The notes below the pieces were generated by a model that saw only the letters and a list, made by a program, of their open reading frames with translations, ran no database searches and was not told the DNA's origin. The translations under genes were made by a program, and so were the position numbers. DNA of 64,000 nucleotides from a virus, in the IMG/VR virus record IMGVR_UViG_3300018059_000012, positions 11,471 to 75,470 of that record. One strand, 5' to 3'. Shown here piece after piece: positions 50,627 to 55,851 of this stretch. The first letter of the stretch is position 1. Every line of letters begins with the position of its first letter.

Positions 50627-51145
50627 ATGGCATCATTTGTTCTTGCATATCCGGCGGTCCTGAAGATCGAAGCTGGCTATGTCAACGACCCTAACGATCC
50701 GGGGGGCGAGACAAACTTTGGCATCACGAAGCGGGATCATCCGGATGAGGACATCAAGAACCTGACGAAGGAGCGGGCTATCGCCATCTACAAGGCGAAG
50801 TACTGGGATCCACTTCGCCTTGACTTCATCAACGATCAGGAGATCGCCGACAAGCTGCTCGACATGTCAGTCAATCTAGGAACGGAAACGACTGCTATGC
50901 GGTTGCAGCGTGCGTTGAATTACACGCTCGTCGGTCGTCCAGTCATCATCGATGGTGACATTGGTCCACAGACTCTTGCCGCGATCAACGCGCTGGCGAG
51001 AGTAGCTGCGATCGGCCCAGACCTGGAGACCCTGGGCCTCGCACTCCGCGCCTATCATGCGGCGCGGTATATCGAACTCGTCGAAGGACCAGACCCTCGT
51101 TTCGATACGTTTGCAAAGGGCTGGCTCCGGCGTGCGATGAAGTAA
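50627..51145 (+). CDS. Endolysin, GH108 with PG_binding_3
   Basis: EAGYVNDPNDPGGETNFGIT; LQRAL..IDGDIGPQT; F.KGWLRR. Confidence 0.95.
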   Translation: MASFVLAYPAVLKIEAGYVNDPNDPGGETNFGITKRDHPDEDIKNLTKERAIAIYKAKYWDPLRLDFINDQEIADKLLDMSVNLGTETTAMRLQRALNYTLVGRPVIIDGDIGPQTLAAINALARVAAIGPDLETLGLALRAYHAARYIELVEGPDPRFDTFAKGWLRRAMK

Positions 51146-51168
51146 ACCCGAACAAGAGGGAGGGAATC

Positions 51169-51981
51169 ATGTTCAGCAATCTCAGTCCAACGACGACCCT
51201 GACCATCGCACTGGTGCTCGGGGCCGTGCTCGGGGCTTTCTTCAGGCTCTGGGTCAGTCCGGCATTCGTGACATTCTCCAAGCAGCTCGTCACCGAGATC
51301 GCCTTCAACGGTCTCGCAGCGGTGCTGATCCCACATGCCGGGGCCATCATTCCAGGTCTCGACGTGACCAGCTTACCACCGCTGGCGGCGTTCGCCGTGA
51401 TGGCGTTCATCGCTTCAGGCAGTGGTGACTTCGTGGGGAACATCAGGAAGCTATTCAGTGGTACCAGTACCGGTCTTGCCGGCAAGATCGTGTCATGGAT
51501 CCTGATTGGATTCCTGGCGATCGGGCTGACCACCGCCTGTGCGAGCAGTGGTGTCGGCAAGGCTGTGCAGGCTGCCGATGCGCAGAAGCAACTCGTCGAA
51601 CGAGCAGCGGTGGAGTTCGTCAAGCTGAAGCTTCGGGGTGATCCGCGTATCACACCTGCGGTGTACGAGCAGGGGCGGGCCGCCTACGAGAAGTATCAGG
51701 GTGCGCAGGCAGGTCTTGCGGAGGCCCTGTCATCCTGGAAGGTAGTGAGCAATCCGGAGAACGAGAACAAGCTACAGGCGGCGCTCGCCGAGGTTACGAA
51801 GAACATCGACTTCTACCTCGCTCTCGTCGGCAAGTTCGTCAACCTGGAGGATCTGAAAAAGAAGATCAGCGCTGGGGCGGTGGAGGAAATCAAGACCACC
51901 TCTGCTGCTCCGACCTGGTTCGAGATCTACTACAGCGCGAGCACGGAGCATTTCACACTCGCCGCGCAGGGGAGGTACTAG
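51169..51981 (+). CDS. Holin-like multi-TM domain fused to lipoprotein-like domain
   Basis: Three hydrophobic segments, then KIVSWILIGFLAIGLTTAC and a helical domain. Confidence 0.6.
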   Translation: MFSNLSPTTTLTIALVLGAVLGAFFRLWVSPAFVTFSKQLVTEIAFNGLAAVLIPHAGAIIPGLDVTSLPPLAAFAVMAFIASGSGDFVGNIRKLFSGTSTGLAGKIVSWILIGFLAIGLTTACASSGVGKAVQAADAQKQLVERAAVEFVKLKLRGDPRITPAVYEQGRAAYEKYQGAQAGLAEALSSWKVVSNPENENKLQAALAEVTKNIDFYLALVGKFVNLEDLKKKISAGAVEEIKTTSAAPTWFEIYYSASTEHFTLAAQGRY

Positions 51982-51984
51982 ATC

Positions 51985-52272
51985 ATGGGAGCGGAAGCGG
52001 CAGCAGGACTCATTCTGCAACTGATCGGGCAGGCGTTCGGGGCAGCAAAGAACGCCGGTCTGGTCGGCAACCCCGACTGGGTGAAGTACGTGGAGGCTGG
52101 ACTCTACATGGCCAGCAAGGCGAAGGACATCCTCGGGGACATCTTCTCGAACCCGTCGAAGTACGACAACATGACGCCGGAGCAGATCAAAGCGTTGCTG
52201 ATGCCGAAGACGTGGGACGAGATCGAGATGCAGGCGATGGCAGAGCTGGCCGCTGAAGGCAGTGGCGGGTAG
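51985..52272 (+). CDS. Lysis-cassette accessory protein
   Basis: GGAGG SD; amphipathic N-terminus. Confidence 0.65.
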   Translation: MGAEAAAGLILQLIGQAFGAAKNAGLVGNPDWVKYVEAGLYMASKAKDILGDIFSNPSKYDNMTPEQIKALLMPKTWDEIEMQAMAELAAEGSGG

Positions 52273-52289
52273 CAGGGCAATCCACGACG

Positions 52290-52321
52290 GCACCGCCCGG
52301 TGATGTCAGGCCGGGCGGTGC
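52290..52321 (+). terminator. Intergenic hairpin
   Basis: GCACCGCCCGGT/GCCGGGCGGTGC. Confidence 0.5.
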
Positions 52322-52331
52322 ATGGGAGAGC

Positions 52332-52736
52332 ATGATGGGAAAGAAAGTGGTTGTAGCACCGGTCCCACCCAAGGCGTCGCTCTCTGATCTGTGGGAGCAG
52401 TTCGGATCCCTCGGGCAGGGCATTGTTAAGATCGGCGTGGCGGTCGCGATGCTCTACTCGCTGTATCTGTGGGGATCTGGCAAGATCGTTTGGGCTGATG
52501 AGCTCACCCAGCTTGTCGCGGATTTTACCTGTCAGTTTGCGGATATTAAACGGACGCAACTCGAAGGGCAGGCCGCTGATCTGCAATTCCGTATCAATCA
52601 GCTGAGTGGACGGAAAGCGTTGACAGCTGATGAATCGCGCGACATCGCACTGCTCAACGTGCGACTCAGCAGCATTCAAAATCAAATCAACAAACTTCCT
52701 GATTGCGCCCGCGGATCACAGCAGCAGCGTCGCTAG
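52332..52736 (+). CDS. Membrane-anchored coiled-coil protein (i-spanin-like)
   Basis: One TM then heptads with two Cys; in lysis cassette. Confidence 0.55.
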   Translation: MMGKKVVVAPVPPKASLSDLWEQFGSLGQGIVKIGVAVAMLYSLYLWGSGKIVWADELTQLVADFTCQFADIKRTQLEGQAADLQFRINQLSGRKALTADESRDIALLNVRLSSIQNQINKLPDCARGSQQQRR

Positions 52737-52741
52737 TTCTC

Positions 52742-52772
52742 TCCCCTAGACTCCCCGTCTAGGGGATCTCTT
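52742..52772 (+). terminator. Hairpin ending the late operon; overlaps partial CTAG element copy D
   Basis: TCCCCTAGAC/GTCTAGGGGA followed by TCTCTT. Confidence 0.6.
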
Positions 52773-52806
52773 CAAAAACCCCTGATTTTCAGCGGGGAGT
52801 GTGTTG

Positions 52807-52819
52807 TAAGTGCTTGATA
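52807..52819 (-). promoter_or_regulatory. IHF consensus site
   Basis: TAAGTGCTTGATA is the reverse complement of a WATCAANNNNTTR match. Confidence 0.6.
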
Positions 52820-52848
52820 TATTCCACCAAAATGGACACACTTAGAAG

Positions 52849-52878
52849 TGGACATCATGTATCCTTATATGGGATGAT
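52849..52878 (+). promoter_or_regulatory. Candidate early promoter overlapping an inverted repeat
   Basis: TGGACA-18-GATGAT with TG extension; ACATCAT/ATGATGT dyad; AT-rich context. Confidence 0.35.
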
Positions 52879-52889
52879 GTTTCCGTAGG

Positions 52890-53523
52890 GTAGCAAAGGG
52901 ATCTAGGAAAGTAAGCCTGGTAACTCCTAGACAGCCTGGAACTAAGACCGGGGCAGCGAGTCGGAGGAGAGAACACGAAGTCAAGACACTCTCCCCGAAC
53001 AAACCGAGATCAGTACCGCGATGGGGCCAGCACAAGCCGACTACTCTCCGAGTCAGGGAGACAGGCGAGTCGAACCCCAGGAGATAGTAGGCGACGACCC
53101 AAGATCTTCGAGGCCCCAGGCGGGGCGAGTCGGAGAAGGGCACGCGGGGGAAACGGGCGGCAGCCCAAAACCAGCTACTCGGGATCGAGGACCCTAGCCG
53201 GGGCCGATCAACTGAAGGATCCGATACGGCAGCGGTAGCGCCGCCGGGTAGTCCTTCGGGGAGCATGACCACACTGGTCGGCTTCGTTCTCTCTTCGCGA
53301 TGGGGACATCGCGGAATTCTTCCGACGCATCCTACTGACGATAGCGACACCGCCTCCGACAGCCGCAGCACCTCACGCCATCACGGCGACATACCCTCAC
53401 ACTCGCTCAGACCGATCGCTACGGACCTTGAAGCCGGGCGACGTTCAGGACTGGAGTAGTCGGCGGAACGCAGAGAGGACGACTCCGACGCCGCGATGAC
53501 AAGCGAGCGTGGTCATGATGGTC
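52890..53523 (+). ncRNA. Large structured ncRNA or leader (~640 nt), unknown family
   Basis: Nested long-range helices and many hairpins including a GGGA tetraloop; no credible ORF. Confidence 0.7.
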
Positions 53524-53576
53524 TCAGGGTACATCCCTGACTGACGAGGGCCTCAGCAAGGCCGAAACCAAACCAC
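53509..53576 (+). ncRNA. Type III hammerhead ribozyme, predicted cleavage after C53523
   Basis: UGGUC^ UCAGGG-uacau-CCCUGA CUGACGA G GGCCU-cagca-AGGCC GAAA CCA; full core present. Confidence 0.9.
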
Positions 53577-53599
53577 TCTATCTGAGGAGGATACACATC

Positions 53600-53869
53600 A
53601 TGGGTAAGCAGAACCGCAATCCAGCTCGCAAGTACAAGGCGCTCACCGACAAGCAGAAGGCCGATGTGGCCAAGCAGTTCGAGAACCTGATGTTCAGGTT
53701 CTTGCCGATAGGTAACACCAAGTCCGAGTGCCTGCTCTCCCTTACGCAGGTCGAGTCGATCGTCAACGGATGCATCAAGATCGAGCGGGCGGAGATTCAT
53801 GCCGAGTTCGAGCCCGAGCCGCTGACCAGGCTCAAGCGCAAGGCCGGGGCGCTGCTGAGCAATAGATAG
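53600..53869 (+). CDS. Early hypothetical protein
   Basis: GAGGAGG SD directly after the ribozyme. Confidence 0.75.
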   Translation: MGKQNRNPARKYKALTDKQKADVAKQFENLMFRFLPIGNTKSECLLSLTQVESIVNGCIKIERAEIHAEFEPEPLTRLKRKAGALLSNR

Positions 53870-54134: not shown

Positions 54135-54181
54135 ATCTCATGCAGTACGACCACTACTCAACCAATCAAGGAGACAACACC

Positions 54182-54532
54182 ATGAAGCTGACCAAGGCGC
54201 AGATCGAGACCCTGAACAACGCGGAGCAGAACAGCAGCAAGGCAGGTCGAGTCTGGATGCCGACCTGGAACCACAAGACGATCGCGATCCTCCACGAGGC
54301 TGGGTTCATCGAGGAACTGGATGACATGAATCACATCCAGGTTGCTGAAGCGAAGGCGCTCATCCTCAAGAGTGCTGAGTCGATCGTTCGGATGACGGAA
54401 GAGAATCGCTACATGATGGTGCAGTCCTCGGCCCGGGCGATTCAGGGTCTCACGCAGGACATTCTCTCGCGGAGCTGGTATATCACCGAGGCTGGACGAC
54501 AGGCGCTCATCCTCGCGAACGGGGGTGCATAG
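54182..54532 (+). CDS. Hypothetical protein, winged-helix-like
   Basis: MKLTKAQ...L..AGFI...ITEAGR. Confidence 0.7.
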   Translation: MKLTKAQIETLNNAEQNSSKAGRVWMPTWNHKTIAILHEAGFIEELDDMNHIQVAEAKALILKSAESIVRMTEENRYMMVQSSARAIQGLTQDILSRSWYITEAGRQALILANGGA

Positions 54533-55311: not shown

Positions 55312-55562
55312 TGACGATCGACATGGAGATCATCGACCTACACAATCCGCATCGTGGTCCGGCGTTCCTGATCGGACTCTGCGGCGCTCGATTCAACGGG
55401 ATTCAGCAGACCGCGACAGGCTGGCCGAACGTCGTTCTCTTTACCGATCCGGTGACCAGCCTGACCATCGCGATGAACGAGAACGACGTGACCATCGGAA
55501 ACGTCTGGCGTGTACTCAGGCAGCACCGCAGCACGCACTTCGGGATTCCGCAGTCGGCCTAA
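55311..55562 (+). CDS. Hypothetical protein
   Basis: GIQ.....VLFTDP.T..T motif; SD. Confidence 0.65.
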   Translation: MTIDMEIIDLHNPHRGPAFLIGLCGARFNGIQQTATGWPNVVLFTDPVTSLTIAMNENDVTIGNVWRVLRQHRSTHFGIPQSA

Positions 55563-55599
55563 GCGGTATCAACCACTCTCAATCAAGGAGACCACCACC

Positions 55600-55851
55600 A
55601 TGATCCAGTTCACGCGTTCCAATCGGACCGAGATCTTCATCGAGCCTCAGTTGCTGGAGCAGTTCTCTGACGAGCTGGTCAACGAGGGCCCGCGCAACCT
55701 GCCAGTGCTCCCGCTCGAGACCGTGCTCAAGAACGTCGATACGATCCACGTGGCATGCAACGGCACTCACGTCTGCGGTCTGCCGGTTCACCTGCAGGTG
55801 TTCGACCTCAACTCCTATCTCAAGCTCGCGCGGTCGAGCCGGAGGGCATAA
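55600..55851 (+). CDS. Hypothetical protein
   Basis: AAGGAG SD and ACCACT leader. Confidence 0.7.
   Translation: MIQFTRSNRTEIFIEPQLLEQFSDELVNEGPRNLPVLPLETVLKNVDTIHVACNGTHVCGLPVHLQVFDLNSYLKLARSSRRA

Follow-up and report, generated by a model that had tools for sequence, protein, structure and literature searches.

The stretch of DNA analysed here, which we call the window, is a 64-kb segment (positions 11471-75470) of a linear IMG/VR phage record of 75,470 bp, derived from an uncultured phage. Every long open reading frame in the window lies on the + strand, and a search for tRNA genes across the 64 kb found none. A lysis module with an endolysin gene is followed, after a gap without genes at 52737-53599, by a run of small genes of no known function that begins at 53600; a hammerhead ribozyme site occupies the 3' end of this gap and so stands between the lysis module and the small genes (Table 1). 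The promoter-like site in the 5' part of the gap suggests that a transcript may start there and cross the non-coding stretch into the ribozyme. No relatives of gene 53600 or of the flanking proteins were found among cultured phages, and none of gene 53600 or of the protein encoded at 54140-54532 in IMG/VR. The reading-frame starts of 54140-54532 and 55510-55851 are probably placed too far upstream; the in-frame ATGs at 54182 and 55600 have good Shine-Dalgarno (SD) sites and an ACCACT box.

Table 1. Features of the intergenic region and its borders, in window positions
Feature	Position	Strand	Remarks
Endolysin gene	50627-51145	+	Lysis module; three further genes follow, ending at 52736
Perfect 10-bp hairpin	52742-51 with 52757-66		Directly 3' of the last lysis-module gene (stop 52736)
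Terminator-like hairpin	52780-97		After the 10-bp hairpin
Promoter-like site, duplicated TGGACA	52849-78		After the terminator-like hairpin
Conserved non-coding stretch	52990-53500	+	90.9% identical to L004; leader, non-coding RNA or DNA-level element
Small hairpin ATGAC/GTCAT	53496-53516	+	Arms 53496-500 and 53512-16 pair over 5 bp around an 11-nt loop; ends 2 nt short of stem III
Stem III 5' strand UGGU and GUC triplet	53519-53523	+	UGGU 53519-22, GUC 53521-23
Stem I hairpin	53524-53540	+	UCAGGG 53524-29 with CCCUGA 53535-40, 6 bp, loop UACAU
Core CUGACGA (C3-A9) and inserted G before G10.1	53541-53548	+	CUGACGA 53541-47, extra G 53548
Stem II hairpin	53549-53563	+	GGCC(U) 53549-53 with (A)GGCC 53559-63, loop CAGCA
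Core GAAA (G12-A15.1) and stem III 3' strand ACCA	53564-53570	+	GAAA 53564-67, ACCA 53567-70
ACCACT leader box	53572-53577	+	Also before four other early genes; follows the L004 and L015 hammerheads
SD GAGGAGG and start codon of gene 53600	53584-53602	+	SD 14 nt past stem III
First small gene after the lysis module	53600-53869	+	89 aa, without known family

The segment 53519-53570 on the + strand is a complete and genuine type III hammerhead motif. Three helices surround the core, stems I and II being capped by loops and stem III being open. A direct re-reading of the letters bore out every position given in an earlier, sequence-only reading of this DNA, for the GUC triplet, the stems, the core, the extra G and the GAAA as well as for the GTGGT/ACCAC and ATGAC/GTCAT arms. 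CUGACGA matches the core strand C3 U4 G5 A6 N7 G8 A9, GUC agrees with the N-U-H rule for the cleavage triplet (H not G), and the A15.1-U16.1 pair is formed here by A53567 opposite U53522. Stem III, in which UGGU pairs with ACCA, has 4 bp; stem II consists of four G-C pairs and one U-A pair, the latter absent in the close relative described below. Loop I begins with U and loop II ends with A. The sTRSV hammerhead has a 6-bp stem I, a loop I that starts with U, a short stem II and a small loop ending in A. With only 5 nt, loop I is 2 nt shorter here than the loops of about 7 nt (UGAUGCU-like) in the phage family, so that the loop-loop contact may be weaker. In thermodynamic folds stems I and II pair with a probability above 0.85 in all contexts folded (0.85-1.0 for stem I), and stem III is weak, with a probability of 0.001 in long precursors; weak stems III are common according to the literature on hammerheads. 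Four observations together lead us to regard the hammerhead as genuine: the motif is complete, it occurs once in the genome, a family model built independently fits it, and the changes in a relative spare stems and core.

How readily would such a motif arise by chance? A descriptor that required stems I and II of at least 4 bp and a stem III of at least 3 bp, and allowed no or one inserted base and loops of at most 40 nt, identified a single site on both strands of the entire 75,470-bp record. In 400 dinucleotide-preserving shuffles this loose descriptor yielded 0.0075 matches per genome, none of them as good as the real site. The analytic estimate for an equally good match is ~2e-6 per genome, which corresponds to ~0.5 chance matches over ~250,000 windows, and the motif alone is therefore not proof. 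Against Rfam RF00008, the alignment spans the core, stem I, stem II and GAAA and scores 15.5 bits, below the gathering threshold of 48.5. At that threshold Rfam also matched none of nine related phage loci (L006, L013 and L017 among them, L043 and L098 not), though these hold related hammerheads. An exact pattern of stem I and its core junction found just two chance matches in viral contigs, neither with a hammerhead.

The first line of comparative evidence comes from a contig of a 97-kb record, here called L004 (the contig of L007 and L037 as well), which was found via the protein encoded at 52332-52736 and is 87.5% identical to the window over 51014-53602. Its ribozyme differs from that of the window at five positions, namely N7 (C to G, so that the core reads CUGAGGA) and four bases of loop II; all stems and conserved core bases are kept, including the four G-C pairs of stem II. 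This is the substitution pattern that would be expected of a working hammerhead, though it reflects two mutational events at most. The two sequences are identical across 53489-53544 and 53558-53577, and their homology runs through the SD and ACAUCAUG up to the start codon. From the homologous ATG, L004 encodes an unrelated protein of 85 aa, as against 89 aa in the window, and similarity resumes at ~54139. A mosaic junction thus falls exactly at the start codon (window 53600, L004 5235), with the non-coding stretch, ribozyme, SD and ACAUCAUG common to both phages. The other homologues of the protein at 52332-52736 are four more, which are 59-78% identical to it, plus one on a metagenome contig that stops ~185 nt past the gene, short of the ribozyme.

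The second line comes from more distant phages. We searched IMG/VR with a pattern that fixed the core and stem II but placed no requirement on stem I, the GUH triplet or stem III; the 12 loci recovered were L004's contig, nine complete type III hammerheads and two of type I. A covariance model, R1, was derived from nine of these phage hammerheads with the window and L004 left out; its score for the window site is 50.9 bits (E ~1e-14), which is at the low end of the family and is the sole significant match in the record. A further search, anchored on the loop I sequence UGAUGC, the core and CGAAAC, returned at least 120 stretches, and 29 distinct full type III hammerheads parsed cleanly. In an alignment of 40 members, which was fitted to the model and for which most members had been picked by descriptors that require pairing, 98.2% of cells are paired as against 34-46% in slid controls, both partners vary in 11 of 14 pairs, including all six of stem I, and the A15.1-U16.1 pair is invariant in 40 of 40 members. 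This covariation is that of the family; the window copy has L004 as its one close relative, in which the stems are unchanged. Because of this fitting and selection, the parts left unconstrained in the first search are the cleaner evidence. Together, L004, the family model and the 40-member alignment settle the doubt about a chance match. The stem II pattern gave 18 matches in bacterial genomes, one of which is a full type III hammerhead (in a Gemmata MAG).

Among the 29 matches listed, the triplet is GUC in 25 and GUA in four, and stem III has 3-5 bp in 22. An SD-like motif and start codon lie 11-36 nt past stem III in 24 of the 29 matches listed, compared with 16% of random same-strand positions, and a hairpin of at least 6 bp on the 5' side of the ribozyme ends at most 7 nt from stem III in 45% of these listed matches, compared with 14% of control positions. 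The cleavage site precedes the AUG by 57-78 nt in 11 family members and by 76 nt in the window. With a small hairpin, the ribozyme and then a 29-nt leader that carries ACCACT and GAGGAGG before the ATG, the layout in the window is typical of the family. The genes downstream of the family's hammerheads mostly encode proteins of 66-89 aa without known families, and no common family was found among the proteins encoded there. Several unrelated phage contigs carry two or three type III hammerheads of the family each (L017 1742-3023, L098 6652-8060, L043 1795-2740, L006 and L013), with copies within 0.5-5 kb, each before a small gene.

What is to be made of the extra G in the core? G53548 sits between A9 and the GGCC/GGCC helix; owing to the GGG run the bulged G is not uniquely placeable, and it may lie two pairs into stem II. 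In the 29-member sample, which was chosen regardless of insertion, one extra base between A9 and G10.1 is present in 15 of the matches listed (8 U, 6 G, 1 A) and none in 14. On this comparison of sequences, the extra core base is a common variant of the family. Two later papers (PMC1636495, PMC3705267) describe an extra A10 between A9 and G10.1 in the CChMVd(+) hammerhead, after De la Pena and Flores (2001), and the second states that in CChMVd(+) trans-cleavage the extra A slows the reaction only moderately, that G is strongly detrimental and that U is beneficial (PMC3705267). The CChMVd(+) ribozyme thus resembles that of the window in having a single extra nucleotide at the same core position; it differs in that the viroid has A, whereas in the phage family both U (8) and G (6) recur among the matches listed. 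By our own reading, the complement of a published oligonucleotide for A. tumefaciens HH3 reads CUGAUGA-U-GG, that is, with an insertion at the same place, and cleavage of the A. tumefaciens three-ribozyme array has been reported in vitro and in vivo (PMC3088659).

The ACCACT box next to the ribozyme is found elsewhere in the genome. It occurs on the + strand at 53572, 54150, 55572, 56239 and 57199, in each case 17-26 nt before an SD-preceded ATG (53600, 54182, 55600, 56270 and 57222), and the last four of these ATGs have the box but no ribozyme. These five leader copies are among 15 on the + strand of the window, and overall there are 48 copies against 22.6 expected. ACCACT also follows the hammerhead in L004 and in an unrelated phage, L015. 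From this distribution, ACCACT appears to be a leader motif in its own right; it could serve as a translational leader or as a processing signal. Cleavage in trans at the other ACCACT boxes was considered and rejected, since the boxes have the sense of the ribozyme's 3' strand and not of its substrate, and a loop closes stem I.

In conjunction, these comparisons lead us to the following model. We think it probable that 53519-53570 encodes a type III hammerhead that acts in cis, belongs to a phage family resembling sTRSV and cuts ahead of the early-gene message. Once transcribed together with the + strand genes, the RNA is predicted to cut itself between C53523 and U53524, 76 nt before the AUG. 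The upstream product would comprise the RNA of the 52990-53500 stretch and the small 3'-proximal hairpin and would end in a 2',3'-cyclic phosphate; the downstream product would carry a 5'-OH at U53524 and open with the structured stems I and II, followed by ACCACT, the SD and the AUG. Hammerhead cleavage is known to leave these two kinds of end (PMC6155905). Because the type III arrangement leaves nearly the whole ribozyme downstream of the cut, the early message would start at 53524 with two stable hairpins. Cutting would separate the conserved non-coding stretch 52990-53500 from the early-gene message, whose 5' end would become fixed, independent of context and probably more stable. Points against the model are the short loop I, the model score at the low end of the family, the inserted G, which is the detrimental base in CChMVd(+), and the low probability of stem III in long precursors. 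The sequence-only reading had likewise proposed that the ribozyme frees the leader of gene 53600, and in so far as a type III hammerhead does lie on the transcribed strand directly before that leader, this part stands; the conformational gating that it attached to the proposal is unsupported, as discussed below.

Perreault et al. (2011, PMC3088659) reported that polycistronic RNAs are cut by hammerheads of phages and prophages, both in vitro and in vivo, and proposed that phage hammerheads divide long transcripts into gene-length messages. In HF1/HF2, the hammerhead termed HHphage precedes the ORF that opens the early, polycistronic transcript, and a 5' end has been mapped no more than 3 nt from the site (PMC3088659). 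HHphage resembles the window element in being a cis hammerhead encoded on the coding strand, immediately ahead of the gene that opens an early block, and the role proposed for it is the cutting of long phage transcripts into defined messages. Unlike the window element, it has insertions near C3 and stem I, belongs to an archaeal saltern virus and has its 5' end mapped, whereas the window element has the consensus core except for one base after A9.

A second point of comparison is the engineered insulator RiboJ, which by cleaving itself gives transcripts a uniform 5' end. Genes insulated in this way show higher expression, and the authors suggest that the leftover hairpin may stabilise the mRNA (PMC6206723). 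The sTRSV(+) ribozyme in RiboJ and the window element share the type III topology and a position between an upstream leader and the ribosome-binding site (RBS), with a structured 5' end left on the mRNA; in the window 76 nt separate the predicted cut from the AUG, and 14 nt separate stem III from the SD. RiboJ, a synthetic part, contains an additional 23-nt hairpin behind the ribozyme; in the natural element of the window the ACCACT box stands in place of that hairpin, loop I measures 5 nt and the extra G is present. By analogy, the window element is likely a natural counterpart of the RiboJ insulator.

It is conceivable that the hammerhead mainly matures the RNA upstream of it, producing the 3' end of a non-coding RNA of ~500-600 nt, with any effect on the mRNA being secondary. 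We hold this to be a possible but unlikely account, and one compatible with the definition of an mRNA end. It draws on the stretch 52990-53500, which is 90.9% identical to L004, while the adjoining 52737-52989 is only 71.6% identical. The indels that separate the two sequences within 52990-53500 measure 1, 4, 1 and 1 nt, and substitutions show no codon-position (third-position) bias; the three upstream genes, by comparison, have 8/7/51, 1/1/8 and 7/2/30 substitutions at the three codon positions, and the third codon positions of the neighbouring genes differ from L004 by ~8-22%. From its identity, its non-triplet indels and the lack of codon-position bias, we conclude that the stretch is non-coding and constrained. 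ORFs 53021-53197 and 53265-53459 were examined as genes and ruled out by the frame-breaking indels and the lack of such a bias. The same account is also favoured by the succession of hairpin (52742-66), terminator-like site (52780-97) and promoter-like site (52849-78) behind the last lysis gene.

The constraint could, however, equally act at the DNA level, on an origin or on packaging or regulatory sites. No Rfam family matched 52990-53500, its fold energy is unremarkable relative to shuffles (z -0.97), and the long inverted repeats, except for an 11-mer, are within chance for a 921-nt region by an estimate that is partly our own. A pattern search with the 52990-53500 block found L004's contig only, and neither Rfam (E <=10) nor R1 detected a second ribozyme able to excise the upstream RNA. 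Moreover, the constant neighbour of the family's hammerheads is the RBS downstream and not an RNA upstream. We regard as improbable an elaboration in which the ribozyme would be the hinge of an early-region RNA in two parts, releasing a functional non-coding RNA of 500-600 nt on one side and, on the other, making translation of gene 53600 dependent on the cut, 53514-20 masking the start codon until then, so that the module, made up of the non-coding RNA, the ribozyme and the leader as far as the ATG, would be a portable expression head. If it were true, the non-coding RNA would have a function of its own, for example in host takeover or in the control of replication or packaging, and different first genes would have been recombined onto the module exactly at the start codon, as seen between the window and L004.

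Very doubtful, in our judgement, is the proposal that the ribozyme is gated or deliberately slow, so that competing pairings would determine cutting and translation would be restricted to cut RNA. The pairings that come into question are GUGGU/ACCAC versus the hairpin 53496-516, or CAUGAUG 53514-20 with CAUCAUG 53596-602 over the AUG. The minimum-energy fold of 53490-53580 does include the GUGGU/ACCAC helix, but the hammerhead by itself folds at -19.0 kcal/mol, a value that falls to -22.3 once the hairpin is included and to -24.1 if the extension forms instead: the hairpin adds -3.3 kcal/mol, and the extended form is only 1.8 kcal/mol better than the form with the hairpin. The sequence-only reading held that stem III can extend through GUGGU 53509-13 and ACCAC 53572-76, and had this extension compete with the hairpin. 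The letters are as it described them; the need for an extension is not borne out, a 4-bp stem III being normal, and the extension is unnecessary given that stem III has 3-5 bp in 22 of the 29 matches listed. Nor does ACCAC call for explanation by pairing, since the ACCACT box, an independent leader motif, also precedes four early genes that have no ribozyme. The supposed competition fails as well, for the hairpin shares only the bases 53512-13 with the extension and touches neither stems I-III nor the core; it leaves the ribozyme untouched and is compatible with the active fold.

Covariation cannot test the extension or the hairpin, because L004, the sole relative, is identical over 53489-53544 and 53558-53577; a competing GUC/GAC extension predicted for stem I requires C at N7, and the G that L004 has there removes it. 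Longer precursors are predicted to fold 53514-20 onto the start codon and to lose stem III, but this AUG-masking helix (53514-20/53596-602) was rejected as a specific feature: 43% of shuffled upstream sequences and 39% of genomic 40-mers do as well or better. Predicted accessibility of the RBS (TIR) rises on cleavage from 0.40 to 0.60 in the window, as gating would have it, but the change is inconsistent across 11 family members, so that a family-wide mechanism in which cutting exposes the RBS was rejected. Pairings of this kind arise easily here, as is seen from GUGGUCAUG at 53509-17, which has a longer complement upstream, at 53264-72. Perfect 9-bp complements link 53051-59 with 53534-42 (the 3' strand of stem I) and 53264-72 with 53509-17 (GUGGUCAUG), and 9-mer complements are about as numerous in the region as chance would make them. 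Cutting could be slowed by the extra G and the short loop I to the point where competition takes effect. With modelled support that is no better than chance, gating is possible, and we regard cutting as essentially constitutive and not switched.

It is highly improbable that the site is a chance match or the inactive relic of a hammerhead, for although the Rfam score is far under the gathering threshold, the core has a non-consensus insertion and ~0.5 equally good matches are to be expected over ~250,000 windows (our own estimate), the motif is kept in L004 with changes at free positions only, an independent family model gives it 50.9 bits, it is intergenic, on the sense strand and at a family-typical distance from the RBS, the core insertion is a common natural variant, and the A. 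tumefaciens array that contains the hammerhead with CUGAUGA-U-GG is reported to cleave fully.

What, then, is the relevance of a probably constitutive, cis-acting hammerhead ahead of the early genes of this phage? The element is an ordinary further member of a widespread and known family of phage ribozymes, in a known type of context, and its kind has been known since the work of Perreault et al. (2011). In the literature, what the many phage hammerheads do biologically is still treated as an open question (PMC6155905). Apart from the behaviour of Rfam, whose gathering threshold found the hammerhead in none of the nine tested loci of this phage subfamily, the result is one at the level of annotation. 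The window copy is a clean example of the commonest layout measured, in which an optional hairpin is followed by a type III hammerhead and, within ~30 nt, by a ribosome-binding site.
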